Of a stretch of DNA of 14,730 nucleotides, positions 1-14,730 are shown one piece after another; positions within the stretch are counted from its first letter, which is position 1, and each line of letters starts with the position of its first letter. The translations under genes were made by a program, and so were the position numbers. The notes beneath the pieces are model-generated. The model was not told the origin of the DNA and did no database searches. It saw nothing but the letters and a program-made list of their open reading frames with translations. Source of the DNA: an uncultured Muribaculaceae bacterium (GTDB lineage: Bacteria; Bacillota_I; Bacilli_A; RF39; UBA660); contig CAZPLK010000013.1 in assembly GCA_964587565.1 (NCBI GenBank), positions 1 to 14,730 on the forward strand, read 5' to 3'.

Positions 1-41
1 TTGTTTTAACTTTACCAAATTACACACCTCCATTTGCTCTA

Positions 42-71
42 ATTATACAAAAAAACGTAAAAAAATGTCAA
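42..71 (-). promoter_or_regulatory. Sigma-A-like promoter (TTGACA-18 nt-TATAAT) for a gene that starts near the left edge and runs out of the window
   Basis: On the minus strand, TTGACA is the reverse complement of 66-71 and TATAAT of 42-47, with an 18-nt spacer. A GGAGGTG RBS (reverse complement of 25-31) follows, with a possible TTG start at 16-18. AT-rich genomes give chance promoter matches. Confidence 0.35.
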
Positions 72-100
72 TCCTTTTATGGTAGCTTTACACTTTAATA

Positions 101-124
101 CACAAAAAAAGAGGATAACCTCTT
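101..124 (-). terminator. Rho-independent terminator of hisS
   Basis: Minus-strand hairpin AAGAGG-UUAU-CCUCUU (109-114 pairs with 119-124) overlaps the hisS TAA stop and is followed by a U-run (complement of the A-run at 104-110). Confidence 0.6.
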
Positions 125-1475
125 ATTTTATGTTTATAATTTCTTCATTTTTTAATAATAATTCATTTTTAATTACTTTGATAGCTTCATCAACACTTAA
201 TAAGTTTTGCTCGCCACTATTCATATTTCTTAGTGTAATCTTATCTTTCTTAAGCTCTTCATCTCCTAAAAAAACTACAAATAATATGTTATTTCTATTC
301 GCATAACTAATTTTATTTTTCAATTTTTTTTCTTCAAAGTATATTTGTGTTTTAATATTTTTGGTTCTAAATTTAGTTGATGTATTGATAGCCCACGAAA
401 TATCATTAATCATTGGAATTATCAGGACATCAGCTGGCGAATCATTAATATCATTTATATAATCCATTTCATGTAAAATAGAAAATAATCTTGTTAATCC
501 TATAGAGATACCTACTCCTGGTAATTTTTTACTTGTATAATGTTCAGCCAAATCATCATAACGGCCACCAGAACATATACTTCCAATTTCTGGATGTTTG
601 TTAAATGTAGTTTCATATACCGTCCCTGTATAATAATCTAAACCTCTTGCAATTGTTAAATCAATCATATAATTTTCATCCGGTACACCAAAGTTAGCAA
701 TATAATTATATACAACTTTAAGTTCTTCAACTCCTTTTATAAAAGTATCAGTTTTGTTATCAAATTTTAATAACTCATTTATTATTTTTTCACCATCACC
801 TTTTATTTCTAAAAATTTTATTATTTTCTCACAAGATTCATTAGAAAGTTTCAAATCGTGTAATTCTTTTATAAAATTACTTGTGCCAATTTTTTCCCTC
901 TTATCAATTATTCTAATAACCTCTGTTTTTTTATCATTGATATTTATCATTTCAAAAAAACCATTTAATATTTTTCGGTTATTTATTCTTATTGTAAAGT
1001 CAGAAAGTCCTAAATTTTTAAATACATTATAAATAATGCTTGGGATTTCTGCATCATTAACAACATTTAACTCTCCATCTCCAATTATATCAATATCTGC
1101 TTGATAAAACTCCCTATATCGTCCCTTTTGAGCGCGTTCACCTCTATAAACTTTGCCAATTTGATATCTTTTAAACGGAAATATAATATCATTATAATTT
1201 TTGGCAACATATTTAGCCAATGGTACTGTTAAATCAAAACGCATTGTAATATCAGTGTTTCCTTTTAAAAACCTATAAATTTGTTGTTCAGTTTCACCGC
1301 CAGCTTTCGCCAATAACACTTCAGATTTTTCTAGTATAGGTGTATCCAAAGGGAAAAAACCAAATAATTCATAAGATTCTTTTAGTATTTGTTTCATAAT
1401 ATTAAATTTTATTTGATCTTCTGGTAGTAATTCCATAAAACCAGATAAGGTTGTTGGTTTAACTTTTTTATTCAT
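123..1475 (-). CDS. hisS: Histidine--tRNA ligase (class II aaRS)
   Basis: 450-aa ORF with HisRS-type class II motifs: FKRYQIGKVYRGERAQKGRYREFYQADIDIIG, SGGRYDDL and PGVGISIGLTRL. It has a C-terminal anticodon-binding-like domain and an AGGAG RBS 8 nt upstream of the ATG. Confidence 0.92.
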   Translation of the reverse strand: MNKKVKPTTLSGFMELLPEDQIKFNIMKQILKESYELFGFFPLDTPILEKSEVLLAKAGGETEQQIYRFLKGNTDITMRFDLTVPLAKYVAKNYNDIIFPFKRYQIGKVYRGERAQKGRYREFYQADIDIIGDGELNVVNDAEIPSIIYNVFKNLGLSDFTIRINNRKILNGFFEMININDKKTEVIRIIDKREKIGTSNFIKELHDLKLSNESCEKIIKFLEIKGDGEKIINELLKFDNKTDTFIKGVEELKVVYNYIANFGVPDENYMIDLTIARGLDYYTGTVYETTFNKHPEIGSICSGGRYDDLAEHYTSKKLPGVGISIGLTRLFSILHEMDYINDINDSPADVLIIPMINDISWAINTSTKFRTKNIKTQIYFEEKKLKNKISYANRNNILFVVFLGDEELKKDKITLRNMNSGEQNLLSVDEAIKVIKNELLLKNEEIINIK

Positions 1476-1600
1476 AAATTCATCTCCTTTTATTATTATA
1501 ACATTTTAGTAAAATCAATGGAGATAATTAGAATTAAAGTATTTACTACATAACACAACAATCACTATAATTCCTCCTTTAATACAAAATTATTTTATCA

Positions 1601-2026
1601 CTATAACTTATTACTGTCAATTTTTTCAAACGTAAATAAATAAAGATTTAAAACAATATAAATAATATTAAAATAAATTATATTATTCGCAACATATTTC
1701 ATTCTATAATTATTGTAGTTATTTACATCATCAATAAACATAACGTTTGAAATAATTTTCGTATCTAGAAGCCCCCTTAGTAAAATTGTTGTAATAATTA
1801 TATTAGATAAAATAAATATTATATTATATTTATTATTATAATTTATATATTGTAAATCCTTTACGTATAAAATTGCCATAATTATTAGCGTTATTGATAA
1901 CAAAATATAAAAAAGGGGAACATTAACATTTTCCATTTTAGGCAAACCTAGTTTAGTACAAAGTAATAATAAAATAAAATTAATAAAAAAACTAATGTTT
2001 TTTAAATAATAAATTTTTTTAGCCAA
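1601..2026 (-). CDS. Hypothetical polytopic membrane protein (about 4 predicted TM segments)
   Basis: 141-aa ORF with several 18-22-residue hydrophobic stretches (FINFILLLLCTKLG, LFYILLSITLIIMAILYV, IIFILSNIIITTILL, IIYFNIIYIVLNLYLFTF). Its start overlaps the upstream ORF's stop by 8 nt. I recognise no family. Confidence 0.5.
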   Translation of the reverse strand: MAKKIYYLKNISFFINFILLLLCTKLGLPKMENVNVPLFYILLSITLIIMAILYVKDLQYINYNNKYNIIFILSNIIITTILLRGLLDTKIISNVMFIDDVNNYNNYRMKYVANNIIYFNIIYIVLNLYLFTFEKIDSNKL

Positions 2027-2654
2027 CTAATTCACCACTTTCTAAAGTCAGTTCTGACAAATATTCAATCACTTTAACTTTGGCAAACAAGTTATTTAAT
2101 AACAAATTAATTTGTGTACCATTTTTTAAGCTTTCAAAATTATTAAATTTATACTCATAATTGTTGATTATAGGCTCAACAATAAAACTTGTCGCTAATA
2201 TTAGTTGAACATTATAATTTATAAAATTCTCCAAATTTAATCCTTTATTATTACTAGATAAAATCCTATAAATTTCTATTGATTCTAAGACATTAATTTT
2301 TGAACAGTCTTTTGCAAATTCATAAAATTGGTTTACATTCATAACATCATTATTACTGCTATAATTCCACATTTTTAATGATTCAATTAATTTTATTTGG
2401 TGAAGTAAATTATTTTTTATTATACTTAACTCTTTCTCTGATAAATAACTATCATTTATTTTATCTATTTTCTCAATGTTTGTTTTAATATTTTTAGATG
2501 TTTCCTGAATTTTTTCTATTTCATTACTATTCTCAAAATTATAATAAAATTTTTCACAATTTATTATAACAAAATGTTTGAAATTACATATTACTAAAAA
2601 ACCTAACACACTAATTAATATAAATATAAGAATATTTTGAAAGTGTTTTTTCAT
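2019..2654 (-). CDS. Hypothetical N-terminally anchored protein with an Asn/Ile/Glu-rich, probably helical ectodomain
   Basis: 211-aa ORF with one N-terminal TM or signal anchor (ILIFILISVLGFLVICNF) and no recognisable catalytic motif. It overlaps the 141-aa ORF by 8 nt, which suggests translational coupling. Confidence 0.5.
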   Translation of the reverse strand: MKKHFQNILIFILISVLGFLVICNFKHFVIINCEKFYYNFENSNEIEKIQETSKNIKTNIEKIDKINDSYLSEKELSIIKNNLLHQIKLIESLKMWNYSSNNDVMNVNQFYEFAKDCSKINVLESIEIYRILSSNNKGLNLENFINYNVQLILATSFIVEPIINNYEYKFNNFESLKNGTQINLLLNNLFAKVKVIEYLSELTLESGELVG

Positions 2655-2697
2655 GCTATCACCTTTTTAATTATATCACAAAAAAAGATAATTATCG

Positions 2698-3786
2698 CTA
2701 ATTATCTTCTACACTTTTATTAAGTTTTACCTTTGTATCCCCAATTTTTCCATCTCGATAAAATTTAATATTTATTTCTTCGCCAACTTCATATTTATAT
2801 AATACAAACCTAAAATGGCCTATACCAGTAATTTTAACGTTATTAATTTCCAGTATAACGTCACCCTTTTTTAATCCAGCGGCTTCAGCAGCTGACTTTT
2901 TTTGAACATTAATAATAGCTATTCCAGATTCAAAAGGCTCGTCATACTGCAATCCATTACGATATAATGCATACGTTTCAGTTGCATCAATTATTTCAAC
3001 ACCTAATAGTGGACGCTTTATCTCTTCGCCTTTTTCTAATCTATCAACTGCACTCATTGCTATTTCAATAGGTATAGCAAAGCCCATACCTTCGATTTCG
3101 TCTTTTACTAATTTTAATGAATTTACGCCTACCACTTCACCATTTATATTTACAAGAGGACCACCACTATTGCCTGGATTAATAGCAGCATCTGTTTGTA
3201 AAACATCCATCATAAAATTACCATTGGGTAGTGTTACAGTAACTGTTCGATCTTTTCCAGATAATATTCCTTTCGTAACAGTACCAATATATTCTGAACC
3301 TAGTGGAGATCCAACCGTAAATAGTGTATCCCCTAAATTTAATTTTGTACTATCACCAATTTTAACAACTTTTAATACTTCTTCTTTATCTATTGCTAAA
3401 ACCGCAATATCGGCATAAGAATCACTTCCTAATAATTTAGCTTCACTCTCTATGCCGTTAATACTTAAAATTTTGATTTTATTTGATTTTTCAATAACAT
3501 GATGATTAGTTATAATATAACCATTTTTATTATCCTTTTTATATACAAACCCTGTTCCTGTTCCGATTAACCTGTTATCTTTATATGCTTCCACTAATAC
3601 AACCCCATCGTACACTTTTGCAATTGCTGGTTGAATTGTGTCTTGTTCTTTAATCTCAACATCATTAATAGTTTTTATTACACTTTCTCCTTTAAAAGGC
3701 ATATTATAAACAACAACATACGTGCCAGTCGCACCTACAAAAAAAGATAAAATTATTATTGATATATAAGTTATTCTTTCACGCAT
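2698..3786 (-). CDS. htrA: HtrA/DegP-family serine protease with a C-terminal PDZ domain
   Basis: 362 aa with an N-terminal TM anchor. The trypsin-like triad context is present (ITNHHVI His, DIAVL Asp, GNSGGPLVN Ser), along with a PDZ-like GLKKGDVILEINNVKI. RBS GGGGTGAT upstream. Confidence 0.9.
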   Translation of the reverse strand: MRERITYISIIILSFFVGATGTYVVVYNMPFKGESVIKTINDVEIKEQDTIQPAIAKVYDGVVLVEAYKDNRLIGTGTGFVYKKDNKNGYIITNHHVIEKSNKIKILSINGIESEAKLLGSDSYADIAVLAIDKEEVLKVVKIGDSTKLNLGDTLFTVGSPLGSEYIGTVTKGILSGKDRTVTVTLPNGNFMMDVLQTDAAINPGNSGGPLVNINGEVVGVNSLKLVKDEIEGMGFAIPIEIAMSAVDRLEKGEEIKRPLLGVEIIDATETYALYRNGLQYDEPFESGIAIINVQKKSAAEAAGLKKGDVILEINNVKITGIGHFRFVLYKYEVGEEINIKFYRDGKIGDTKVKLNKSVEDN

Positions 3787-3799
3787 CTTATCACCCCTA

Positions 3800-4732
3800 T
3801 TATAAATTTATAATTTCCCGCCAATTATCAGGAAATCCGATTTTATTTAATATTGTGTTTAATGGTACTGTTTTGACTTTACCTTCTAAAATATTAATTT
3901 CATAACCAATTTCATATATAAACTCCCTAAACTCATCATCAGTAAGCATTTGTTTCATAATTATAACCAGAGCATATAAATCATTTTTCCCAAAATTATA
4001 TTCATCATTTGTCATATCTATATTTAATAAATAATGATATTTTGTATCTGGAATTCTTCTTTGAGTTCTATGATCATAAAGTATATCTTCGTGAGCACAT
4101 AAATTTCTATAATTAGCAAGCATTGATAAATATACTGTTAAATTTTCAGGCTCCAAATCATACGTATTAGAAAGTTCAATTTGATCTTCTGGTTTTAATA
4201 TATTAAATAATTCAGCAACTATTCCAAATGATAATACTTTCACTAGTATCCACATTGGTATATAACCATAATTACTTAAATAATGCATTGTCGCAGTATG
4301 TTGTTTACCATTTACCCTTATTTGCCTTTTCATTTTATTTAAAACGTCATTAACTTGTTTAGTTTTGTAACTGTCTTGATTAAAGTTTTTAGGGTCCAAA
4401 TATTTCTTTTCTTTAAAACCATATTTTCTAGATAACGTATAACTAATTTTTGATTTAATGTTGTTTTCAACAATTAAAATATATTTAAACATAATATTTC
4501 TAATTTTCCTATCGAAAACAAAAGTTGCATATAATTCCTCAAATGTCGTACCAGGAAAAAATCTCCTATCCCTATGAGAACGCATAAACAAGTGACGATA
4601 TCCACTTATAAAAAAATAATTTTCTCTATATAAAATATCTTTAGCTTTTTCAGGAAAATCAATAACTAAACCTTTATTTCTTAATATTTCAATTTGTTCA
4701 TCTAATGTCCGAAATATTTTACTGCCCATCAT
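3800..4732 (-). CDS. Abi_2-family protein (AbiD/AbiD1/AbiF-like abortive-infection domain)
   Basis: 310 aa. The N-terminus (F-TLDEQIEILRNKGLVI...AKDILYRENYFFISGYRHLF) and the overall length and helical pattern match my memory of the Abi_2 (PF07751) family. RBS AGGTGAT upstream. Confidence 0.7.
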   Translation of the reverse strand: MMGSKIFRTLDEQIEILRNKGLVIDFPEKAKDILYRENYFFISGYRHLFMRSHRDRRFFPGTTFEELYATFVFDRKIRNIMFKYILIVENNIKSKISYTLSRKYGFKEKKYLDPKNFNQDSYKTKQVNDVLNKMKRQIRVNGKQHTATMHYLSNYGYIPMWILVKVLSFGIVAELFNILKPEDQIELSNTYDLEPENLTVYLSMLANYRNLCAHEDILYDHRTQRRIPDTKYHYLLNIDMTNDEYNFGKNDLYALVIIMKQMLTDDEFREFIYEIGYEINILEGKVKTVPLNTILNKIGFPDNWREIINL

Positions 4733-4765
4733 ATCACCTATTATTTATTATAACATATTTTTTTA

Positions 4766-6985
4766 TTATTGACCTTTTATTTTATATTTCATTTTTTTTA
4801 ATCTTAATGCATTAAAAACGACACTTAAACTACTAATGGTCATAGCTAAACCTGCTAACAGTGGATTTAATACAATCCCTATTGGTCTTAAAAAGCCAAT
4901 AGCAATTGGTATCATAGCAACATTGTAAATAAAAGCCCAAAATAAGTTTTGTTTTATATTTTTAATAGTGTTTCTACTAATCTCCAAAACACTTATTATT
5001 TTACTTAAATCATCATTTAATAAAATAATATCTGCTGAATCATTAGCAATATCAGTTCCACTACTAACACTGACTCCTATATTTGCAATCGTCAAAGCTG
5101 GAGCATCGTTTATACCGTCACCAATCATCATTACAACTTGGTTTTTATTTTTCAATTTAATTATAACGTTTGACTTTTCTTTTGGCAATACATTAGCAAA
5201 TACCTTTTCTATACCTATTTCATTTGCAACTAAATTCGCTGTTTTTTCGTTATCACCAGTTAACATAATTGTTTTTATATTAAGTGATTTTAAATCCACG
5301 ATAATTCCTTTTACATTTTCTCTTAATACATCCTTAACACCAATTATACCTAAAACTTCCTTATCTTTCACAACATATACAATGCTGTTTCCAGCAGAAG
5401 TGAGTTTATATTCTATATCACTGTACTTATTTAAAATTTCGTATTTTTTCAAAAGTGCTCTGTTACCAATATATATTGTTTCATTATTTATCTTTCCTTT
5501 AAGACCATATCCGGGCAAGTTTATAAAATTAGTAACATTTTTAAGTTTTATATTTTTTTCTTTTGCATATTTAACAATTGCTAATGCGATAGGATGTGTC
5601 GAATGACGTTCAACACTAGCTACTATACTAATTAATTTATTATCACTAATATTACTAAAATTATATATTTCGGATATTGTCAAATTTCCTTTAGTTAATG
5701 TACCTGTTTTATCAAAAACAATCGTATTAACTTTATGTGCATTTTCTAATACTTCACTCGATTTAATTAATATACCATTATTAGCACAAAGTCCTTCAGC
5801 AATAACAATCGCTAATGGTGTCGCTAATCCTAATGCACACGGACAAGATATTACTAAAATACTTACAAAAACATTTAGTGCAACACTAAAATGATAACCA
5901 AGTAACAAATATATTGCGAAAGTAATTAATGAAATGGCCATAACTATAGGTACAAAATAACTACTTATTTTATCAACAAATAATGCAATTGGGGGTTTAG
6001 TATTTGCAGCCTCTATAACTAAACGTACTATTTCAGAAATAGTAGATTCTTTACCAATTTTTTCTGCCTTATATTCTATATATCCAGAATAATTAATACT
6101 GCCTGCTATAACTTTTGATCCTTTTTCTTTTTTAACTGGAATACTTTCACCTGTAATAAAAGTTTCATCTAAATGCGACATTCCAAAAACTACCTCACCA
6201 TCAACTGCTATTTTATCACCGGGCTTTGCCACTAAAATATCCCCTTGTTTCACTTCATCAATTGTAACCTTTTTAGTTTTATTTCCTTTTTTTATTATCG
6301 CCATTTGAGGTGTTATTTGAACCAGTTTTTCAATAGCTTCTTTAGTTTTATTTTTACTATTTTTATCTATAAAACGCCCTAATTTAATAAAAAATAAAAT
6401 CATAATAGCTGATTCAAAATATAAATTGTGTGCATAACTTACATCTCCCATAAAAATTTTAATTGTACCAAAAATACTATAAAGAAAGCTACTTACAACA
6501 CCAATACTCACTAATGTATCCATGTTTGGATTTTTATTTAACAAACTTTTAAAACCGTTTTTTAATATATCTAATCCGTAAAACAAAACTGGTAATGATA
6601 AAATTAATAGTAATACAGCATATGACCTAGGGGAAATTTTAGGATCCATAATCAAAAACAAAGGTTTTTTAATCATCGCTATCATCGAAATATACATAAC
6701 AAAAAAAGATATGATTCCATAAAAAATAATTTTAACTGTTTCTCTCTTTGATGTTTTGACGTTATCAATAGGATTATATTCACCTAAACTAATATATCCA
6801 GCTTTTTTAACAAAACTTTCAATATTATTGATTGTCAATGAATCATCGTATTCTATTAGTGCTGTCGCCATTATTAAATTCACATTTACTTTAACAATAC
6901 CTTTTTGCTTTTTTAAGTATTTTTCAAGACTATTAGAACAAGCACTACAACTCATACCTTCTATTTTTAATATAATTTTATTCAT
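4766..6985 (-). CDS. copA: Copper-translocating P1B-type ATPase
   Basis: 739 aa with an N-terminal HMA domain (GMSCSACS), a TGES actuator motif, the CPC transmembrane metal site (SCPCALGLATP), the DKTGTLT phosphorylation site and the GDGINDAPAL hinge. Confidence 0.93.
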   Translation of the reverse strand: MNKIILKIEGMSCSACSNSLEKYLKKQKGIVKVNVNLIMATALIEYDDSLTINNIESFVKKAGYISLGEYNPIDNVKTSKRETVKIIFYGIISFFVMYISMIAMIKKPLFLIMDPKISPRSYAVLLLILSLPVLFYGLDILKNGFKSLLNKNPNMDTLVSIGVVSSFLYSIFGTIKIFMGDVSYAHNLYFESAIMILFFIKLGRFIDKNSKNKTKEAIEKLVQITPQMAIIKKGNKTKKVTIDEVKQGDILVAKPGDKIAVDGEVVFGMSHLDETFITGESIPVKKEKGSKVIAGSINYSGYIEYKAEKIGKESTISEIVRLVIEAANTKPPIALFVDKISSYFVPIVMAISLITFAIYLLLGYHFSVALNVFVSILVISCPCALGLATPLAIVIAEGLCANNGILIKSSEVLENAHKVNTIVFDKTGTLTKGNLTISEIYNFSNISDNKLISIVASVERHSTHPIALAIVKYAKEKNIKLKNVTNFINLPGYGLKGKINNETIYIGNRALLKKYEILNKYSDIEYKLTSAGNSIVYVVKDKEVLGIIGVKDVLRENVKGIIVDLKSLNIKTIMLTGDNEKTANLVANEIGIEKVFANVLPKEKSNVIIKLKNKNQVVMMIGDGINDAPALTIANIGVSVSSGTDIANDSADIILLNDDLSKIISVLEISRNTIKNIKQNLFWAFIYNVAMIPIAIGFLRPIGIVLNPLLAGLAMTISSLSVVFNALRLKKMKYKIKGQ

Positions 6986-7035
6986 ATAATTATCACCACT
7001 TAATATATTTTAAACTTAAAATATCTCCATAATAA

Positions 7036-7064
7036 AATATACACTTTTTGAATTTTTATGTCAA
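7036..7064 (-). promoter_or_regulatory. Sigma-A-like promoter upstream of copA (TTGACA-17 nt-TATATT)
   Basis: On the minus strand, TTGACA is the reverse complement of 7059-7064 and TATATT of 7036-7041, with an exact 17-nt spacer. It lies in the 94-bp cwlD-copA gap. I saw no CopY box (TACAnnTGTA) or CsoR-type operator. Confidence 0.4.
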
Positions 7065-7079
7065 ATATAAAAACGGATT

Positions 7080-7742
7080 TCAATTTTGAAAATACTTAAC
7101 AATCCCTCCTGCAATAACATTACTTACTTTTTGTTGATAATATTTTTTTCTTAATAAATATCTTTCGTTTGGATTACTTATAAAGCCAACCTCTATTAAA
7201 ACACCTGGCCGTTTAACACGTTTATGAAGATACATCTCTGCAGTCTTCTTATACTTTCTTTTGGTATTCAAGTGTTTTGCTAACTCAGATTGTATAATTC
7301 GTGCAATTTTTTCATTTGATTCATGCACATCATCATAAAAAACTTGCGCACCATACCAAACAGGAGAAGAGTCGGAATTTAAATGAATAGAAATATATAA
7401 ATCACACCCTGACCGATTTATTATATTTCCTCTTCTGGATAAATCACTTCTTTTCCTGTTTATAGCGTTTATAACACTTAAATCATAATCACCATACCTT
7501 GTCATATATACAATAGCACCCATATTGCCTAAAGTATCACTCAAAGTTTCACTTATTTCCAAATTAATATTTGATTCATATATATCTTTATATACTGCCC
7601 CTGGATCAGCACCTCCATGACCTGGGTCAATGTATATGACTTTGCCTAATAACGGGTACTCTTTTTCTTTTGCTTCAATATAATTAAAAAACAGCAATGA
7701 AATTACAAATAATGAGGTGCACATTATTTTATATTTGAACAT
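7080..7742 (-). CDS. cwlD: N-acetylmuramoyl-L-alanine amidase (Amidase_3), CwlD-like
   Basis: 220 aa with an N-terminal signal anchor. Amidase_3 motifs are present (IDPGHGGADPGA, YISIHLNS, LIEVGFISN). Its position just downstream of rplM-rpsI matches the Bacillus cwlD neighbourhood. Confidence 0.75.
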   Translation of the reverse strand: MFKYKIMCTSLFVISLLFFNYIEAKEKEYPLLGKVIYIDPGHGGADPGAVYKDIYESNINLEISETLSDTLGNMGAIVYMTRYGDYDLSVINAINRKRSDLSRRGNIINRSGCDLYISIHLNSDSSPVWYGAQVFYDDVHESNEKIARIIQSELAKHLNTKRKYKKTAEMYLHKRVKRPGVLIEVGFISNPNERYLLRKKYYQQKVSNVIAGGIVKYFQN

Positions 7743-7782
7743 TTTATCACCTAATTAATTATATTCATCTAAATTTTTAATA

Positions 7783-7811
7783 TAAAAAAAACCTACATAT
7801 GTAGATTTTTT
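7783..7811 (-). terminator. Weak bidirectional-looking rho-independent terminator after rpsI
   Basis: A palindrome (cctacatatgtag within 7792-7805) is flanked by an A8 run at 7784-7791 and a T-run at 7806-7811. On the minus strand the hairpin is followed by U8. The stem is short and AT-rich. Confidence 0.45.
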
Positions 7812-7833
7812 AAACAATTTAATGTTAAATCAA

Positions 7834-8253
7834 TTAACGTTTTGAATATTGTGGTGCACGACGTGCTGCTTTTAATCCAGGTTTTTTACGTTCTTTAATA
7901 CGTGAATCCCTTGTAATAAATCCAGCTCTTTTTAAAATTTGTCTAAAACTATCTTCATTGTTAGGGTCGTTATTAACATCATACTCTAAAAGTGCACGAG
8001 TTATTCCTAAACGAATCGCTCCAGTTTGACCATTAAAGCCGCCTCCATTTACTTTAACATCTATATCAAACATGTTTTCAGTGTTTGTAGCAACTAAAGG
8101 TTGTTTTAAATCCATAACATTTGTTTCATATGGAAAAAACTCTTTAACATCAATTCCATTAACTGTTATTTTACCTTTACCAGGAATCATCTTAACTTGT
8201 GCGATTGAAGATTTTCTTCTTCCTGTTCCAATATAAATTTTATTTTTAGTCAT
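7834..8253 (-). CDS. rpsI: 30S ribosomal protein S9
   Basis: 139 aa. The N-terminus has [27 protein letters not shown] and the C-terminus has [17 protein letters not shown], both typical of uS9. AGGAGG RBS. Confidence 0.95.
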
Positions 8254-8266
8254 TTAAAACCCTCCT

Positions 8267-8701
8267 TTAATTAATTTTTAACTCAACTGGTTGCTGAGCT
8301 GTATGAGGGTGTTCATTACCTTCATACACAAATAACTTTCTATACATTTGCCTACCTAATCTCCCTTTAGGAAGCATACCTTTAATTGATCTTTCTACCA
8401 TTTCAACTGGATATCTATCTTTCATTTCGCGTGCTGTTCTTTTCCTTAAACCACCTGGATAACCACTGTGATTATAATAAACTTTTTGGTCTAATTTATT
8501 ACCAGTTAAATTTATTTTAGATGCATTAATTATAATAACATAGTCACCACCATCAACATGTGGTGTAAAAGTTACCTTATTTTTCCCACGAAGTATGTGT
8601 GCAGCTTGGGTTGCGAGACGTCCTAAGATGACATCTTCTGCATCAATTACATACCAGTTACGTTTAACATCTTCTTTTCTTTGCATATATGTTGTTTTCA
8701 T
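8267..8701 (-). CDS. rplM: 50S ribosomal protein L13
   Basis: 144 aa. [46 protein letters not shown]...[10 protein letters not shown] is canonical uL13. Confidence 0.95.
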
Positions 8702-8812
8702 ATAACTTTCCTTTCTTATCTCATACTAATATAAGTAGTCCCAATACTTATAATAGTGGGATATATAAAATGTACCAACTAAAATTTTACTAAATTTCAT
8801 AACAATTGTCAA
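8702..8812 (-). promoter_or_regulatory. rplM promoter (TTGACA-17 nt-TAAAAT) plus an approximately 75-nt 5' leader with a hairpin; possible L13 autoregulatory leader
   Basis: On the minus strand, TTGACA is the reverse complement of 8807-8812 and TAAAAT of 8784-8789, with a 17-nt spacer. The leader contains the stem UCCCA...UGGGA (8739-8743 pairs with 8757-8761). A ribosomal-protein L13 leader is described in low-GC Gram-positives, but I cannot match a covariance model by eye. Confidence 0.35.
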
Positions 8813-8840
8813 CATTATCATATGTTTTTTTGTTTTATTT

Positions 8841-9581
8841 TTAATAAAATACATCTTTTAAATATAAACCTTCGGGATTAGCTGTTTTACCAGCATTTTT
8901 TCGTTCTAGCGATTTTAAAATGGTTATTATATCTTCACTTTTTCTTTTACCTTCGCCTATTTCAATTAATGTACCAACCATGTTACGAACCATATATCTC
9001 AAAAAACCCGTACCAACAAAGGAAATTGTAATTTTATTAACATTTTTAACATCTCTTATTAAATTTGTTTGAACAATAATCCTAACAAAATCTTCTTTCT
9101 CGTCATCAACTTTTGAAAAAGCTTTGAAATCGTGTTCTCCTTCCAAATACTTTAAAGCCCTTTCCATTTCTACAACATCTAATCTTTTATTATATTGATA
9201 TACATAATTCTTTTCAATTGGATCATATTCACCCATATTAATTTTATATATATACTCCTTTGCTTTAGCATCAAATCTTGCATGAAAATTGTCATTAACC
9301 TCCATAACACTTTTTATATAAATATCATCTGGGATCAAACTATTTAATGCCTTTTTTAATTTTTCTGGTGTTATATCCATTTCCAAATCAAAATGGGCTT
9401 TTTGATTTATTGCGTGAACTAACGCATCAGTTCTTCCACTAGCATGGATTGAAACTGCTTTACTATCATTAATGATTTTTAATGCTTTTTCGATTTCACC
9501 TTGAATAGTTTTAACCCTCGCTTGTTTTTGATAACCCTTATATTTAGAACCATCATATGAAAACGTTATAAAGTATCTCAT
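8841..9581 (-). CDS. truA: tRNA pseudouridine(38-40) synthase
   Basis: 246 aa. The catalytic-Asp motif GRTDALVHA is present with a TruA-like fold pattern. It sits in the canonical ecfT-truA-rplM position and overlaps the ecfT stop by 4 nt. Confidence 0.9.
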   Translation of the reverse strand: MRYFITFSYDGSKYKGYQKQARVKTIQGEIEKALKIINDSKAVSIHASGRTDALVHAINQKAHFDLEMDITPEKLKKALNSLIPDDIYIKSVMEVNDNFHARFDAKAKEYIYKINMGEYDPIEKNYVYQYNKRLDVVEMERALKYLEGEHDFKAFSKVDDEKEDFVRIIVQTNLIRDVKNVNKITISFVGTGFLRYMVRNMVGTLIEIGEGKRKSEDIITILKSLERKNAGKTANPEGLYLKDVFY

Positions 9582-10333
9582 AATATTACCTCTCTAACTA
9601 CTAATAGTACTAAAATAATTGAATGAATAAGTACCATATATGTATCAAAAAAGCGCCAGTTATTCATTCTAAAATTAGTTCTTTTTTTATTTATATTATA
9701 TAATCTTAATTCCATTGATACTGCTAACTCGTCTGCCCTTTTAAAAGAATACACTAACATTGGTAAAACTAATGATCTTATTCCAATTAACTTATCTTTA
9801 ACTTTTGAATTAGTATAATCTATTCCACGGCAAGTTTGTGCTTTTATTATTTTATTTGCCTGATCTATAATTGTTGGAATAAATCTTATCGCTAAACTTA
9901 AGGTTAGTGCCATTTTATTAACTGGTATTCCAATTAAGCGTAATGGTGTAAAAAACTGTTCCAAACCATAAGTTAATTCAGTAGGTGGGGTTGTTAAAGT
10001 TAGTACAGACGAATAAATAACTACCAAAACTAACCTAGATACCATAATAATACTTACGGTTACACTTACTTTTAGTATAGCATTAATCATTATTATAAAG
10101 ATTATTATTATTTTCAAACTTTTAATTGCTTTAATATATATTTTCAAAGGAATATTAGTCATTAACGTAATTAAAATTACAAATATAGTTATTAAACATA
10201 CAAAAAATAAACTATTATTTAAAAACATTAATAATGTAAATATGAATGTGCATATTATTTTGGATAATGGATTCATACAATGTATTTTAGAAGTTATTGG
10301 ATAATATCGCCCTATCATCACGTTATTTAGCAT
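9578..10333 (-). CDS. ecfT: ECF transporter transmembrane (T) component, CbiQ family
   Basis: 251-aa polytopic membrane protein directly downstream of two ECF-type ATPases, with a conserved Arg-containing helical region near the C-terminus (RADELAVSMELR). Confidence 0.85.
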   Translation of the reverse strand: MLNNVMIGRYYPITSKIHCMNPLSKIICTFIFTLLMFLNNSLFFVCLITIFVILITLMTNIPLKIYIKAIKSLKIIIIFIIMINAILKVSVTVSIIMVSRLVLVVIYSSVLTLTTPPTELTYGLEQFFTPLRLIGIPVNKMALTLSLAIRFIPTIIDQANKIIKAQTCRGIDYTNSKVKDKLIGIRSLVLPMLVYSFKRADELAVSMELRLYNINKKRTNFRMNNWRFFDTYMVLIHSIILVLLVVREVIL

Positions 10334-11174
10334 ATCTATATATGTCCTTAATTAAATCATTTATTTCATCACGATATCCCATTTTAATATTTTTTTCTTT
10401 CAACACTTTATTTGAAAATTCCATTATTTTAGGAACCCCTATGCCATGTTTTTGTAACAGTTCATAATTACTAAACACATCATATTTATTACCTTCTAAA
10501 ATTATTGTTTTATTACTTAATACAAATATTTGATCTGATATCTTATGTAAAAAATCAACATCTTGTGATACTATTATTATTGTTTTATTATAATTATTGC
10601 GAAGCATCTTTATCAATCTAATTAAATTGTTTTTACTATTACTATCCAATCCAACTGTAGGCTCATCAAAAATTATAACTTTAGGATTAAACACTAAAAT
10701 TGATGCAATGGCAACTTTTCTTTTTTCACCATTACTTAATGTCAATGGGTTTCTTTTTAAATAACTTTCATCTAAGCCTACCATTTTTAAAGAGTTCTGA
10801 ACCCTTTCATCAATATTTTCCACTTTATAATTAAAAGTTTTTAGTGCAAATTCTATTTCTTTTTTTACTGTTGAATTAAAAAATTGATCTTCAGGAAACT
10901 CAAATATAAAACCAATATTAAATCTTAATAAATAAATATTTTTAATTTTCTGCTTTTTATCAATATAACAGTTATCTACTTTAATTCTTCCCTCTGTTGG
11001 TATTATTAATGACATTATCATCTCTATTAAACTAGTTTTTCCACTTCCACTTTTACCAATAATAGCGTTTACTTTATTTTTATGTATTTTAAAATTAATA
11101 TTGTTTAAAATTTCTTTTTCTAATGGGGTATCTTTATTGTATGTTAATCCAACATTTTCGATCACTATCTCCAT
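10323..11174 (-). CDS. ecfA2: ECF transporter ATPase component A2
   Basis: 283 aa with Walker A GKSGSGKTS, signature LSNGEKRKV and Walker B IIFDEPT. It is the second ATPase in the ecfA1-ecfA2-ecfT order. Confidence 0.88.
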   Translation of the reverse strand: MEIVIENVGLTYNKDTPLEKEILNNINFKIHKNKVNAIIGKSGSGKTSLIEMIMSLIIPTEGRIKVDNCYIDKKQKIKNIYLLRFNIGFIFEFPEDQFFNSTVKKEIEFALKTFNYKVENIDERVQNSLKMVGLDESYLKRNPLTLSNGEKRKVAIASILVFNPKVIIFDEPTVGLDSNSKNNLIRLIKMLRNNYNKTIIIVSQDVDFLHKISDQIFVLSNKTIILEGNKYDVFSNYELLQKHGIGVPKIMEFSNKVLKEKNIKMGYRDEINDLIKDIYRYAK

Positions 11175-11971
11175 AATTTTTCCACCATCTCATCCATATC
11201 AAAAACAAATTCTTCTACTAACCCATAATACATTAATTTAAGTGATAGCTCAGCCATAAAAGGAATATCTATTCCTATGGAATTAAAAATTTTATCTTCT
11301 TTAAAAACTAATTCTTTACTGCCATTTAAAACAATTTTACCAGAATCAATAAGAATTACATCATCTCCGTAAATAGATTCTTCAATATCGTGAGTTATAT
11401 TAATTATTGTTATTCCTTTTTCTTCTTTAAGTTTTAATAATATATTTAAAATGTTTTCCCTGTCTAAATAATCAATTCTATTAATGGCTTCATCCAGTAT
11501 AAGTATTTTAGGTTCTAATACTAATACACTAGCTAAGGCAACTAATTGTCTCTGACCACCACTTAGAGAAAAAGGATTTTTTTCTAATAAGTTTGTTATA
11601 TTTAAATAATTACTAACTTCTAACACTTTTTTTCTTATATATTCCTTATCCTTTTCTAAATTTTCAAGTGCAAAGGCCATCTCATCCATTACCGTTTCAG
11701 CAACAAATGTGCTATCGGGATGTTCAAAAATAACACCAACAAATTGCCTGATTTTTTTAACGTTGTCTTTTGTAAGAATAACATCATTTATAAAAATTTT
11801 ACCATCTGCCTCTAAAAGGCCAACAATTATCTTAATAAGTGTACTCTTACCACTACCATTTGGACCGATTATAGTTGTCCAAGCACCTTTTTTTATGTTT
11901 AAATTAAATTTATCAAAAATTTTATTATCATTGTATTTAAATGATAAGTCTTGAATCTTTAATATATCCAT
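11165..11971 (-). CDS. ecfA1: ECF transporter ATPase component A1
   Basis: Walker A GPNGSGKST, signature LSGGQRQLV and Walker B LILDEA. The ORF track starts at 11983 (MEVAM...). The ATG at 11971 (MDILKIQ...) has a GGAGG RBS 5 nt upstream and the 11983 ATG has none, so I prefer 11971. Confidence 0.85.
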   Translation of the reverse strand: MDILKIQDLSFKYNDNKIFDKFNLNIKKGAWTTIIGPNGSGKSTLIKIIVGLLEADGKIFINDVILTKDNVKKIRQFVGVIFEHPDSTFVAETVMDEMAFALENLEKDKEYIRKKVLEVSNYLNITNLLEKNPFSLSGGQRQLVALASVLVLEPKILILDEAINRIDYLDRENILNILLKLKEEKGITIINITHDIEESIYGDDVILIDSGKIVLNGSKELVFKEDKIFNSIGIDIPFMAELSLKLMYYGLVEEFVFDMDEMVEKLWR

Positions 11972-11991
11972 GGCAACCTCCATTGGACATT

Positions 11992-12020
11992 ATTATAATA
12001 TAAAAAAAATAATTTGACAA
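11992..12020 (-). promoter_or_regulatory. Sigma-A-like promoter for the ecf-truA cluster (TTGTCA-17 nt-TATAAT)
   Basis: On the minus strand, TTGTCA is the reverse complement of 12015-12020 and TATAAT of 11992-11997, with a 17-nt spacer. It lies in the 67-nt gap between the RT stop and the ecfA1 start. Confidence 0.4.
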
Positions 12021-12038
12021 CTTTTGAAATTTACAATA

Positions 12039-13226
12039 TTATTTTAAAACGACTTTAAAGTACCATTTAGATACTTTAAAATAATTCCAAAAATTTACAT
12101 GTAATATATTAATTAATTTACTACGCAAATAGTAAGTATTAAAATGTAATAAAAGTCCTAAATAAGAATTCAATATTGCTTGAATCTTTTTAACGTCTTT
12201 TTCGCATAAATTTTGTTCTAACAATGTGTTAACATAGGCAATCGCACAGTAAAAATTATTTTTAACTCTCGGTGTAATATACCTCCTCCATGGTTTTATG
12301 TAAGCCCCTAAAAATTCAACGCCATGAGTAATATTTTGTAAATATATTTTATTAGGATGAAGTTCAAGTTGTAAATTATTTTTAAGAAATTCTTGTATTT
12401 TGGGTATGCAATCTTTTAATTCTTCTCTTGAGGTAGATAATAAAAAAAAGTCATCAACATATCTACCATAAAATTTTATTTTTAATTTACTTTTAACAAA
12501 ATGGTCCAAAGAATTTAAATAGAAATTAGAAAAAATTTGACTAGTATAGTTGCCAATAGGAAGTCCACAATTTTCATTAGTATGAAAAAGACTTTTAGAT
12601 TTGGGAAGACCATCCCATTTACTATAAGAACATTTAATTGTGCAATTGTTAGTGGCATCATTTAAAATTATTAATTGGCATAACCAAATTAATTTCTCTT
12701 TATCATTATAAATATATTTTAGTTTTAAAAAGTTTTCTAGTTTTTCTAATAATATAAGTTTATTTATACTCATAAAATAACTTTTAATATCTAATTTCAA
12801 AACATAAGCATCGCGATTATAATTATGAGTAATTTTTCTAATAAATTTGTTTAACCGATTAATTCCAAATAAGGTTCCCTTACCCTTTCTACAACTATAA
12901 GAATCATAAATAAATTCACGTTCAAACATCTTTTCTAATTTCATTACAATTAAATGATGAATAACCCTATCCCTAAAAGACGAGGCACAAATTTCCCGTT
13001 TAACAGGCTTTTCAACTATAAAAAAAGAAGTAGGACTTATTTTATAATCCCCACTTTTTACTTCTTCCCATAACTCTATTAAATTTTCCTCATAGTCAAT
13101 ATCAAATTCTAGACAGTCAAGTTTACTCTTTTTATTTTTACGACATTGATAATATGCCTTAAAAAAGTCTTCTAAGCAAATATCATTAAGTTCTTCAGTT
13201 AATACAAAATCATTTAATCTGCTCAT
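12039..13226 (-). CDS. DGR-type reverse transcriptase
   Basis: 395 aa from the ATG at 13226, which is preceded by an AAGGAG RBS. RT motifs are present: KREICASSFRDRVIHH, YVLKLDIKSYFMSI, the DGR-diagnostic motif 4 LPIGNYTSQ (IGxxxSQ), YGRYVDDFF (YxDD) and HGVEFLGAYI. There is no endonuclease or maturase extension. It lies immediately 3' of the TR. Confidence 0.93.
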   Translation of the reverse strand: MSRLNDFVLTEELNDICLEDFFKAYYQCRKNKKSKLDCLEFDIDYEENLIELWEEVKSGDYKISPTSFFIVEKPVKREICASSFRDRVIHHLIVMKLEKMFEREFIYDSYSCRKGKGTLFGINRLNKFIRKITHNYNRDAYVLKLDIKSYFMSINKLILLEKLENFLKLKYIYNDKEKLIWLCQLIILNDATNNCTIKCSYSKWDGLPKSKSLFHTNENCGLPIGNYTSQIFSNFYLNSLDHFVKSKLKIKFYGRYVDDFFLLSTSREELKDCIPKIQEFLKNNLQLELHPNKIYLQNITHGVEFLGAYIKPWRRYITPRVKNNFYCAIAYVNTLLEQNLCEKDVKKIQAILNSYLGLLLHFNTYYLRSKLINILHVNFWNYFKVSKWYFKVVLK

Positions 13227-13252
13227 ATAATAATCTCCTTTAATTGTAATAA

Positions 13253-13435
13253 GTCCCAAAACGCAACGAACCGAGCGACCGTTACTCTGACTGTTGTCGT
13301 TGCGATTAACACCATCATTAGAAGAGTTCATGTTACGTCTCCAAGCATTCGAACCTGAGAGAGAAGACGTCCACCAATTACCGTTAGACCCAACATTGTT
13401 GATCGTACCAGAGGTGTTACGGTTACCAGCAGGCA
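13253..13435 (-). repeat. DGR template repeat (TR)
   Basis: 183 bp, collinear with 14505-14687 at a constant offset of 1252 with no indels. 165 of 183 positions are identical. All 18 mismatches are T on the plus strand here, which is A on the coding (minus) strand. Its conceptual translation is Asn-rich, with 14 AAY codons. Confidence 0.95.
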
Positions 13436-13594
13436 ATCAAATAGTAAAATGACTCCTAAAAGCGTTTAAAGTGACTACTGTACTCGTCCGCATATTCTCG
13501 TGAATACCGACATATAAATCCCAAAAAATCGGGGAGTCACCGGACTTAATAGGCACACTCCTAAACAGCAGTACCATTTAGAACTCCGGCCAAG
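13436..13594 (-). ncRNA. GC-enriched noncoding segment between the avd stop and the TR; candidate structured 5' portion of the DGR template RNA
   Basis: 159 nt with no ORF. My hand count gives about 42% GC (65 of 154 nt counted), against about 25% in the neighbouring avd and RT genes. It is contiguous with the TR on the same strand. The function is inferred only. Confidence 0.35.
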
Positions 13595-13954
13595 TCAATT
13601 TTTTAAAAATTTTTCCCACCCTATAAGTTGCCTTCTAACATTTTCCATTTTTACACTTACTTCAACATGTTCATCTATACTTATTTGATGAAGATCATGT
13701 AACAATCGAAACAACAATCTAATCACTTCTATATTTTCAATAGCAGCCTCAACTTTATTTAATTTTAAATTTTTCTCCCTTATCTTATTTGCTCGATATA
13801 CATTCATTAGCAAATCAGTCATTTCATTTTTAATTTTTTCACCTAAAGTATACTTATATTCACGGGATAAATTCTTTATTAATTTAAAACTATCAAGTAA
13901 CAATTCATAGCTTACCTTATAAACAGGAAGTTCAATAGCCTTTGATTTACTCAT
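13595..13954 (-). CDS. avd: Avd-type DGR accessory protein (four-helix-bundle, 23S rRNA-IVS protein family)
   Basis: 119 aa, all-helical and basic. The pattern LPVYK.SYEL...L.K.LSREYKYTLGEKI......L...YRAN...........IE.IE.IRLLFRLLHDL..IS......V......V.RQL.GW.K is typical of Avd/TIGR02436-like proteins. It sits immediately upstream of the TR. The start overlaps the upstream ORF's stop (ATGAGTAA). Confidence 0.82.
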   Translation of the reverse strand: MSKSKAIELPVYKVSYELLLDSFKLIKNLSREYKYTLGEKIKNEMTDLLMNVYRANKIREKNLKLNKVEAAIENIEVIRLLFRLLHDLHQISIDEHVEVSVKMENVRRQLIGWEKFLKN

Positions 13955-14300
13955 TATCCATCAATATTTTTCTATAATAATTTAGTTTATCCAAAGCTTC
14001 TTCAGCAGTTATGTCTTTACTTGCCTTTATATCTTCTATTACATAATCAACAGTACTTAAAACAATTTCATAATCATATTCCAATAACTCAATAAATTTT
14101 ATATAAGTATCTATTTTTTCTGATGGAAAACCACATTTGTTTGTTAATTTAGAAAATTTTGTCAACTTTAAACCTAATTCTTCAGACATAAGTTTAGCAT
14201 CTTCCCCTAAAAATATATAAAACTTACCCACTTTAAACAAATATAGTTTGTTCTTATCGTCTTTTTTCTTACTCAAATATTTTTTATATAACTTACTCAT
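13947..14300 (-). CDS. Small MutS-domain-I-like protein (mismatch-binding-domain homolog only); candidate DGR accessory factor
   Basis: 117 aa. LYKKYLSKKKDDKNKLYLFKVGKFYIFLGEDAKLMSEELGLKLTKFSKLTNKCGFPSEKIDTYIKFI aligns by eye with E. coli MutS residues about 13-80 ([46 protein letters not shown]....MAGIPYHAVENYLAKL). There are no connector, clamp or ATPase domains. AGGAG RBS. 8-nt overlap with avd. Confidence 0.7.
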   Translation of the reverse strand: MSKLYKKYLSKKKDDKNKLYLFKVGKFYIFLGEDAKLMSEELGLKLTKFSKLTNKCGFPSEKIDTYIKFIELLEYDYEIVLSTVDYVIEDIKASKDITAEEALDKLNYYRKILMDNE

Positions 14301-14334
14301 CTTTTCTCCTTATAACTTCTACAAATTTTAGTTT

Positions 14335-14380
14335 TTTTAAAAAATTCTGTTGTCACTAGCCTCAAAAGGCTAGTGACAAC
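14335..14380 (-). terminator. Strong rho-independent terminator downstream of the DGR target gene
   Basis: Perfect 13-bp stem (14349-14361 pairs with 14368-14380) with a 6-nt loop. On the minus strand it is followed by AGAAUUUUUUAAAAAAAC. Confidence 0.65.
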
Positions 14381-14438
14381 CTTTAAATTTGTTTATTAAC
14401 ACTTTTCATTGCATGGATTAAAAAAATTATTTACTAAG

Positions 14439-14458
14439 CCATGGCGTAAACGCCATGG
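14439..14458 (-). promoter_or_regulatory. GC-rich hairpin (8-bp stem, 4-nt loop) downstream of the VR
   Basis: CCATGGCG-TAAA-CGCCATGG is a perfect inverted repeat (14439-14446 pairs with 14451-14458) in an otherwise AT-rich spacer. Its role in DGR target recognition or transcript stability is inferred. Confidence 0.4.
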
Positions 14459-14474
14459 AAAGTGGAAGGGTGAA

Positions 14475-14497
14475 GCCTAAGTCCTTACGGACTTGGC
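14475..14497 (-). promoter_or_regulatory. Hairpin immediately 3' of the VR and target stop codon; candidate DGR target-recognition (cruciform) element
   Basis: In minus-strand sense the sequence is GCC-AAGUCC-GUAA-GGACUU-A-GGC: 6+3 bp with one bulge and a GNRA-type GUAA loop. It starts 2 nt after the TAA stop and 7 nt after the last VR base. No equivalent hairpin follows the TR. Confidence 0.5.
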
Positions 14498-14499
14498 GG

Positions 14500-14730
14500 T
14501 TAATGTCCCAAAACGCAACGAACCGAGCGACCGTAACTCTGACTGTAGTCGACGCGATGAACACCATCATTAGAAGAGAACATGAAACGCCTCCAAGCAT
14601 CCGAACCTGAGAGAGAAGACGTCCACCAATTACCGCCAGACCCAACATTGCCGATCGCACCAGAGGCGTTACGGTGACCAGCAGGCAGGGCACTAAACCC
14701 ATAATCATCTGTTCCACCCATAACTACTGC
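14500..14730 (-). CDS. DGR target protein, C-terminal fragment (C-type-lectin-fold variable domain, FISUMP/DUF1566-like); the 5' part lies outside the window
   Basis: The reading frame is open to the window edge (AVVMGGTDDYGFSALPAGHRNASGAIGNVGSGGNWWTSSLSGSDAWRRFMFSSNDGVHRVDYSQSYGRSVRCVLGH*). The GFSALPAG...G..WW(S/T)SS...AW......G........G.SVRCV pattern matches my memory of the Fibrobacter-succinogenes-major-paralogous/DUF1566 type of DGR variable domains. The VR occupies the extreme C-terminus. Confidence 0.85.
   Translation of the reverse strand, partial: AVVMGGTDDYGFSALPAGHRNASGAIGNVGSGGNWWTSSLSGSDAWRRFMFSSNDGVHRVDYSQSYGRSVRCVLGH
14505..14687 (-). repeat. DGR variable repeat (VR), inside the 3' end of the target gene
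   Basis: It is the 183-bp counterpart of TR 13253-13435. At the 18 mismatches the VR carries A, C or G on the plus strand where the TR has T. The 30 nt at the 3' end in coding sense (14505-14534) are identical to the TR and GC-rich, which resembles an IMH (initiation of mutagenic homing) element. Confidence 0.95.

Follow-up and report, generated by a model that had tools for sequence, protein, structure and literature searches.

A complete, probably active MSL-type diversity-generating retroelement with a structured RNA upstream of its template repeat in a contig of a Bacilli-like bacterium

The DNA stretch analysed here, called the window in the following, comprises 14,730 nt (contig CAZPLK010000013.1, positions 1 to 14,730). 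Its minus strand carries a cassette in the order target gene, MSL, avd, structured RNA, template repeat (TR) and reverse transcriptase (RT) gene. We consider it a complete, probably active chromosomal diversity-generating retroelement (DGR) of the MSL type in an uncultivated low-GC Bacilli-like bacterium, with a probability of about 90%. The reading starts from the comparison of the TR with the variable repeat (VR) at the 3' end of the target gene. The minus strand is the coding sense for every element of the cassette; hence, a T of the TR on the plus strand is an adenine in the coding sense.

13253-13435, minus strand: TR, 183 nt, non-coding, delimited by the gapless alignment with the VR
14505-14687, minus strand: VR, 183 nt, 90% identical to the TR
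14507-14532, minus strand: adenine-free, G+C-rich VR tail of 26 nt (TR counterpart 13255-13280), read from the sequence; resembles the invariant end known as initiation of mutagenic homing (IMH)

A first-pass annotation of the same letters had aligned both repeats by hand. The computed alignment reproduces it: the offset is constant at 1252 over 183 columns with 0 indels, and the 18 mismatches lie at the positions read by eye (13283, 13295, 13300, 13301, 13307, 13327, 13328, 13333, 13334, 13338, 13349, 13384, 13385, 13399, 13400, 13406, 13415 and 13424). In the coding sense the changes are A>G in nine, A>T in seven and A>C in two cases (T>C 9, T>A 7 and T>G 2 on the plus strand), as had been counted. 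Changes were found at 18 of the 42 TR adenines and at 0 of the 141 other bases, again in agreement with the earlier count. Mismatches at non-adenine positions or indels, which the first-pass annotation had named as evidence against mutagenic retrohoming, were looked for in the computed alignment, and neither is present. By the hypergeometric distribution, a restriction of all 18 mismatches to adenines has P=1.0e-13.

The consequences for the protein had also been described correctly. Ten of the 14 AAY codons are altered (to H, G, G, D, F, F, H, V, Y and Y), two ACN threonine codons became alanine codons and one AGA>AGG change is silent. In total 12 residues are changed and no stop codon arises; 12 of the 13 altered codons are non-synonymous. 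Most TR adenines (39/42) are located at codon position 1 or 2 of the VR frame, and a stop is possible from one TR codon, AGA, by change to TGA. The proposed repertoire of 15^14 variants (2.9e16) is right for the 14 AAY codons, but not as the full total, since all 25 adenine-bearing codons give about 1e23.

The homology between TR and VR ends abruptly on both sides, and the flanks match at about 25%, which is the chance level. The pair is the sole long repeat in the window. The G+C content is 26.9% for the window, 48% for the TR and 54% for the VR. The 26-nt tail contains no adenine and therefore could not be mutagenised. As a side observation, the TR, the VR, the RNA scaffold and the hairpins flanking the VR form islands of 44-54% G+C (window 13253-13593 and 14439-14687).

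Three protein genes belong to the cassette beside the target gene:

13947-14300, minus strand: MSL, 117 aa, MutS domain I only (Pfam MutS_I, E=5.9e-13, 49.5 bits, cut-off 20.6)
13595-13954, minus strand: Avd, 119 aa (Pfam bAvd, E=5.8e-15, 56.1 bits, cut-off 40)
12039-13226, minus strand: DGR reverse transcriptase, 395 aa (RVT_1, E=1.4e-21), ATG at 13226 behind an AGGAG ribosome-binding site

The MSL protein aligns to residues 16-85 of Taq MutS. In its motif GxFYIFLGDDA the mismatch-stacking phenylalanine is kept (F27, equivalent to Phe39 of Taq MutS); the neighbouring catalytic-site glutamate (Taq Glu41) is replaced by an invariant isoleucine in MSL proteins. The start of avd overlaps the MSL stop by 8 nt, and Avd is also matched by NCBIfam DivGenRetAVD (E=1.5e-14, under its cut-off). 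No HRDC domain was found in the cassette by domain searches. The RT contains YVDD and LPIGNYTSQ; the latter we take to be the DGR RT signature. For the RT 6794 homologues were obtained; its best NCBIfam match, under the cut-off, is a group II intron RT. With tblastn RTs were found in 107 phage records, with 34-41% identity among the matches listed. Those listed comprise DGR-bearing phages of Bacteroides uniformis; Bordetella phages account for five of the matches. The assignment of the repeats as TR and VR and the interpretation as a DGR, both made at first pass, are borne out by this context: the adenine-bearing copy is located 26 nt upstream of an intact DGR-type RT gene, and Avd, MSL, a VR hairpin and a structured RNA are present.

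MSL is a published class of DGR accessory proteins. It defines 'Architecture D', occurs with Avd and never with HRDC, and has 112-283 aa (Wu et al. 2018, PMC5758913). Judged by its predicted proteins the cassette of the window is Architecture D, with a MutS_I-only protein of 117 aa within the published size range, Avd and no detected HRDC. It is an ordinary member of the known DGR system, with the RNA scaffold on the unusual side of the TR.

The target gene and the region behind the VR contain the following features:

14500-14730, minus strand: 3' end of the target gene, 76 codons and a TAA stop at 14502-14500, frame open from the window edge to the stop
14475-14497, minus strand: hairpin 1, directly 3' of VR and stop codon, GCCAAGTCC-GTAA-GGACTTAGGC, candidate target-site hairpin or cruciform
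14439-14458, minus strand: hairpin 2 (predicted), CCATGGCG-TTTA-CGCCATGG, after the conserved pyrimidine-rich spacer GGCTTCACCCTTCCACTTTCC
14349-14380, minus strand: intrinsic-terminator-like hairpin of 14 bp with a T-run between target gene and MSL, read from the sequence

The VR ends 2 nt before the target stop codon. The window is practically the entire contig of 14731 nt; it ends 43 nt upstream of the VR, and the 5' part of the target gene is unassembled. The fragment was matched by Pfam Fib_succ_major (E=1.5e-7, 32.3 bits, cut-off 33.9) and by NCBIfam TIGR02145 FISUMP (E=8.6e-10, below the curated cut-off). These scores fall just below the cut-offs because only 76 residues of the protein are in the window; full-length relatives of the target reach FISUMP/Fib_succ_major scores of 109-119 bits. 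Fib_succ_major/DUF1566 VRs form the target category 'd' (Wu et al. 2018, PMC5758913). The first-pass annotation had placed the 12 recoded residues on a lectin-fold binding surface. This is consistent with the domain matches to the 76 residues and with the published classification, which are its basis instead of a structure.

Hairpin 1 was compared in six related cassettes. Its seven pairs are 100% paired, three of them with compensatory changes, and slid controls are paired to 18-50%. The position of hairpin 2 is occupied by a hairpin in all six relatives, with differing sequences. A G+C-rich inverted repeat enhances homing in phage BPP-1 (PMC5758913). Hairpin 1 matches this inverted repeat, and by analogy a putative role in homing may be assigned to it.

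Altogether 166 loci were compared, the window included. Adenine-biased repeat pairs were found in 111 and Avd in 141 of them; MSL is restricted to the closest subclade. The closest RT relatives with genomic context are uncultivated metagenome-assembled genomes (MAGs) named 'Bacilli bacterium' (L003/L004, L005, L007 and L014), and L006, binned as Muribaculaceae. In all of these loci the gene order target-MSL-Avd-TR-RT is identical; the chromosomal insertion places differ. In L006 and L014 only the 3' part of the target is present, cut at the contig start. L003 (JGI) and L004 (NCBI) represent the same region in two independent assemblies. Over 21.2 kb they are identical except for the VR and a LysM repeat (17356-17611, seven substitutions); the TR is identical. 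The VR (approximately 8446-8635) differs by four substitutions, all at AA dinucleotides of the TR, and by three single-base indels. Owing to the indels the called gene changes from 367 to 430 aa; they resemble artefacts that arise when a mixed population is reduced to a consensus.

Retrohoming presumably still operates in the element of the window. The alternative that the cassette once diversified its VR and is now inactive, with the 18 differences as a frozen record, draws on some of the points that weigh against an active element. The VR of the window was found on a single contig, and genome and metagenome scans gave no second copy of the element. A scan of the genome collection with the RT alone gave nothing, and with an RT alignment 80 loci, the genome of the window not among them; in the metagenomes only relatives turned up, none with more than 53% RT identity, and the window VR was not found a second time. 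With MSL, two short Logan contigs of the element (L001, L002) were obtained, which reach only the first part of the TR and end before most of it and before the VR. Both SRR8925797 and SRR8925798 carry the element, and in SRR8925797 a hisS contig of the same genome was found as well. Exact-protein look-ups of the RT in the versions of 395 and 430 aa gave no contig. Furthermore, the VR sequence comes from a metagenome-assembled contig, in which several variants may have been collapsed into a consensus or a mosaic; FISUMP and NCBIfam Avd score under their curated cut-offs, and the nature of the truncated target is inferred. Nevertheless, we consider activity far more probable than fossil status because non-adenine differences are absent (0/141) though the genome has 27% G+C and the repeats have 48-54%, because the open reading frames (ORFs) of RT, Avd and MSL are intact and conserved, because the RNA scaffold described below and the VR hairpin are intact, and because the sister element L003/L004 is polymorphic in its VR at TR-adenine sites. 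A fossil is thus improbable. The same observations give indirect support to the word 'recent', which the first-pass annotation had used for the retrohoming. An ordinary duplicated segment (a paralogous repeat or gene-conversion tract) with one-base differences by chance or by an unrelated mutational bias has nothing in its favour beyond the presence of a repeat; the computed alignment, together with the neighbouring genes, already refutes it, with P=1e-13 for 18 of 18 differences on adenines, one copy non-coding and abutting a DGR-type RT gene with Avd, and the same pattern in more than 100 related loci.

Between avd and the TR there are 159 nt of unusually G+C-rich non-coding DNA. They contain a predicted RNA with the following parts:

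13460-13593, minus strand: structured RNA scaffold, 134 nt (covariance models; sub-threshold match to Rfam RT-7)
13591-13552, minus strand: P1, long 5' hairpin of the scaffold
13551-13542, minus strand: single-stranded linker UAUUAAGUCC of the scaffold
13541-13535 with 13476-13470, minus strand: P2, long-range stem enclosing P3 and P4
13534-13520, minus strand: P3 hairpin of the scaffold
13511-13486, minus strand: P4 hairpin of the scaffold
13250-13256, minus strand: anti-linker GGACUUA, the last 4 nt of the TR and 3 nt downstream, complementary to UAAGUCC of the linker (13548-13542)

The TR begins about 34 nt after the 3' strand of P2. A first covariance model, built from five relatives, found 19 copies of the scaffold; a second one found 74 copies in 73 related loci among 99 sources. 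All copies are located on the RT strand and 5' of the TR. In the alignment of 19 sequences 92.5% of the cells are paired, compared with 41-47% in slid alignments, and 30 of the 36 pairs show changes on both sides; these values have to be read with caution, as fitting the RNA alignments to the structure of the model tends to raise the number of paired positions. None of 500 shuffles reached pairing scores as high as those of the scaffold. More distant members of the clade retain only P1 and the linker. The covariation supports the prediction of an RNA scaffold upstream of the TR.

The scaffold of the window matched Rfam RT-7 (RF03028) with 37.5 bits (E=6.8e-6), and the gathering score of 116.8 was not reached. 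Sub-threshold matches were obtained at the same place in L005 and L014 (37.6-43.3 bits); none of the 16 related loci reached the gathering threshold. Hence, the scaffold appears to be related to RT-7 but is no member by the Rfam criterion. RT-7 is one of 19 'RT' motifs described near RT genes; no function was given, and only RT-10 was tied to a DGR (Weinberg et al. 2017, PMC5737381). The parts of the scaffold that align to the RT-7 model are its long-range stem and its 5' hairpin, and both RNAs adjoin an RT gene. In contrast to RT-7, the scaffold has a much shorter internal region, and its scores of 37-43 bits are far under the threshold. For Rfam RT-10 no match was detected.

Linker and anti-linker form a duplex of 7 bp according to RNAduplex. 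The pairing co-varies among the relatives, with UUAAGUUC/GAACUUAA in L005, CGAGUCC/GGACUCG in L070, UUUAAAUCC/GGAUUUAAA in L136 and a version of 12 bp in L085. For 42 non-identical loci the mean duplex energy of the own pairs was -6.87 kcal/mol and that of permuted pairs -3.45 kcal/mol (sd 0.30). Not one of 20000 permutations was as low, but the loci are related and such P-values overstate their independence. Furthermore, the position of TR/VR mismatches relative to the edge of this duplex was compared in 29 loci. Upstream of the duplex 39.5% of the adenines (559/1414) and 0.9% of the non-adenine positions (31/3396) are mismatched. Inside the duplex the values are 8.3% (4/48) and 6.7% (6/90). 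The rise of non-adenine mismatches inside the duplex is significant (Fisher p=3e-4), with the reservation that the mismatch count there is small (10). This pattern is expected if mutagenic copying starts at the edge of the duplex and the paired TR bases are never transferred.

Pairing of the linker with the VR DNA instead of the TR RNA was considered as well and rejected. The TR is the better complement in 26 loci and the VR in nine, with seven ties. Since the TR is favoured in most loci, intramolecular RNA pairing was kept; the nine loci favouring the VR are unexplained. In the subclade of L049, L053, L072, L077, L013 and L069 it is the 3' end of the VR, not that of the TR, which is a perfect complement of the linker, and the TR/VR differences at the 3' ends are not at adenines. 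These differences may be static ones located outside the copied segment, or they may hint that the linker also reads target DNA.

For BPP-1 cryo-EM data show that TR117-129 pairs with Sp47-56 by seven canonical pairs, with the priming nucleotide at the 3' end of the Sp strand. Two nucleotides further begins Sp59-70, whose partner is a piece of avd immediately 5' of the TR; this pairing is the 'cPRT Stop', and a short stem-loop and adenosines are next (bioRxiv 10.1101/2023.10.23.563531). In the window the local order is a primer-like linker, the 5' strand of P2, the stem-loop P3 and an A-rich stretch, and the 3' strand of P2 is located just upstream of the TR. Because the local order of the elements is the same as in BPP-1 but the block is located 5' of the TR, we propose a circular permutation of the BPP-1 DGR RNA, primed by the linker and terminated at P2. 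This analogy is tentative, with chances that are even at best.

In the mechanism suggested here, MSL-avd-RNA-TR-RT would be transcribed as a unit. A sigma-70 promoter scan gave 22 sites compared with a shuffle mean of 15.6 (sd 3.9) in the A+T-rich DNA, and no promoter was assigned. The structured RNA immediately 5' of the TR would serve as the assembly site of RT and Avd. The duplex of the linker and the TR end would be the template:primer duplex and the P2 stem the stop of cDNA synthesis. With the 3' end of the linker (13542/13541) as primer, cDNA synthesis would begin at about 13257 (opposite G13257) and stop on reaching P2. During reverse transcription of the TR random nucleotides would be misincorporated opposite adenines. 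The cDNA would then replace the VR at the 3' end of the surface-protein gene, with homing guided by the adenine-free common 3' end and the conserved hairpin after the stop codon, and MSL may act on the mismatched cDNA:VR intermediate. The present VR would be one product, with 12 recoded residues in the FISUMP or C-type-lectin-like module.

Alternatively, the upstream RNA could be only a regulatory or stability element of the operon, such as a leader or processing site, with priming as in the Bordetella phage from a sequence downstream of the TR inside the RT coding region. The primer site of the linker model is placed by inference, and a survey of 278 Avd-containing DGRs reported putative Avd-binding stem-loops downstream of the TR for 207 of them (bioRxiv 10.1101/2023.10.23.563531), both of which speak for this possibility. 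However, the TR and the ATG of the RT gene are separated by only 26 nt, which are A+T-rich and unconserved and hold the ribosome-binding site. The BPP-1-type layout with a structured spacer between TR and RT is thus not found here, and the conserved structure is located upstream of the TR. The missing match to RT-10, the co-varying complementarity of linker and TR end, the end of adenine mutagenesis at the edge of this duplex and the location of P2, which relative to the TR is that of the Bordetella stop duplex, argue in the same direction. We consider a purely regulatory RNA rather unlikely.

The type of the target protein was examined in the closest complete relatives. The targets of L004, L005 and L007 begin with KKQGFTLIELLAV, the prepilin cleavage/methylation signal TIGR02532, with ComGC/GspG-like N-terminal matches beside it, followed by the FISUMP module. 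The prepilin feature (an N-terminal G/FTLIE motif with a hydrophobic helix after it) was present in these three and in about 30 of the best 120 homologues; the window's own target was absent among the pilin-FISUMP homologues retrieved. A search with the L005 protein gave a family of PF07963+PF09603 proteins of about 330-390 aa, named 'Bacilli bacterium' where source names are given. It also returned many pilins of about 400-570 aa, some from Bacilli MAGs, which carry other C-terminal modules and resemble the query only over its N-terminal 40%. For the 76-aa VR fragment of the window one weak match was obtained. The AlphaFold model of the L005 target (pLDDT 85) consists of an N-terminal helix of 54 residues, a sheet and the C-terminal module. 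A Foldseek search of this model against the PDB gave no significant match (best E=0.3), and therefore no fold is claimed for it. By analogy with the closest complete relatives, the target of the window may be a type IV pilin-like protein. The target of L006 has a different upstream module, and hence the target type of the window stays open. Among the papers searched, none was found to link DGRs with type IV pilins. Taken together, that the family uses a permuted BPP-1 RNA and that its MSL-bearing Bacilli subclade diversifies the lectin-like C-terminal module of a modular type IV pilin is possible, at slightly less than even odds.

Several known systems resemble the cassette. Like the window, the DGR of Legionella pneumophila (target LdtA; an Architecture D example, PMC5758913) is chromosomal and possesses Avd and MSL without HRDC, and its VR occupies the C-terminal end of a surface-protein module of the DUF1566/Fib_succ_major type (CLec2). 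The two differ, as far as compared by description only, in the low-GC Bacilli-like host of the window and in the targets, which carry a type IV prepilin signal in the relatives and a lipoprotein signal in Legionella. With BPP-1 (Mtd, Avd, bRT, TR, Sp RNA) the window shares the adenine-specific TR-to-VR transfer, Avd and RT, and a VR 3' end that is invariant and G+C-rich and has an inverted repeat behind it. Also common to both are a duplex of about 7 bp at the TR 3' end, an adjoining second duplex and then a stem-loop with adenosines. In contrast to BPP-1, the TR abuts the RT gene in the window and the scaffold is 5' of the TR, giving a circularly permuted connectivity. MSL is absent from BPP-1, whose target is a phage tail fibre and not a cellular surface protein. 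For Bacteroides, a preprint (bioRxiv 10.1101/2024.11.15.621889) describes DGRs which diversify tip adhesins of Type V pili. The notion that a DGR of a cell varies the adhesive portion of a pilus subunit is common to both; the pilus there is of type V, the prepilin signal of our relatives is of type IV and the phylum is different.

With the window, the rare MSL type gains a further well-formed and probably active cassette, from an uncultivated Bacilli lineage. Beyond the cassette itself, the comparison gave two results, namely a covariation-supported 5' RNA scaffold that pairs with the TR 3' end in a co-varying manner, which is the new point, and pilin-type targets among the relatives. If the linker duplex is the template:primer duplex, the RNA logic of the phage DGR would be conserved but permuted in a large cellular DGR clade, and designers of DGR-based mutagenesis tools would learn which RNA parts are modular. 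The type IV pilin-like targets of the relatives point to hypervariable pilus adhesins in Gram-positive-type bacteria. A MutS domain I protein with the phenylalanine kept and the glutamate lost may be a handle on how mismatched cDNA:VR intermediates escape or use mismatch recognition.

Some observations concern gene calling and copy number. In the window no stop codon separates the TR from the RT gene, and both share one frame (12039-13436, minus strand), which gives a mechanical ORF of 465 aa; the public gene call for the RT has 430 aa (P0001), compared with 395 aa of the real RT. The TR of L004 is annotated as a 'Fib_succ_major' gene of 73 aa. TRs can pass as coding sequence in annotations. 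L004 and L007 are located on one MAG contig (JBMNEQ010000001.1, at about 304 kb and about 66 kb), which has two complete MSL-Avd-TR-RT cassettes, each with its own pilin-FISUMP target and with nearly identical TRs and RNA scaffolds. In L006 the block of MSL, avd and RNA scaffold is tandemly duplicated (1188-3331), with MSL ORFs at 1188-1550 and 2455-2817, identical scaffold matches at 1907-2064 and 3174-3331, and one TR detected. The DGR genes of L006 all resemble the Bacilli set despite the binning as Muribaculaceae.

Downstream of the RT gene the window contains ecfA1-ecfA2-ecfT-truA-rplM-rpsI, followed by genes of an amidase, a copper ATPase, Abi_2, HtrA and hisS. As annotated, the setting is chromosomal and not that of a phage. 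The order ecfA-ecfA-ecfT-truA-rplM-rpsI and the relatives named 'Bacilli bacterium' point to an uncultivated low-GC Bacilli-like bacterium as probable host. Between hisS and htrA there are two adjacent ORFs of 141 and 211 aa (1601-2654, minus strand) without Pfam match. The Abi_2 gene, abortive-infection-like, is directly followed by the gene of an HtrA-type protease in the window (2698-4732, minus strand) and also in the distant relative L003/L004 (12718-14775). In both the pair is located a few kb from the DGR, and the remaining neighbourhood differs.

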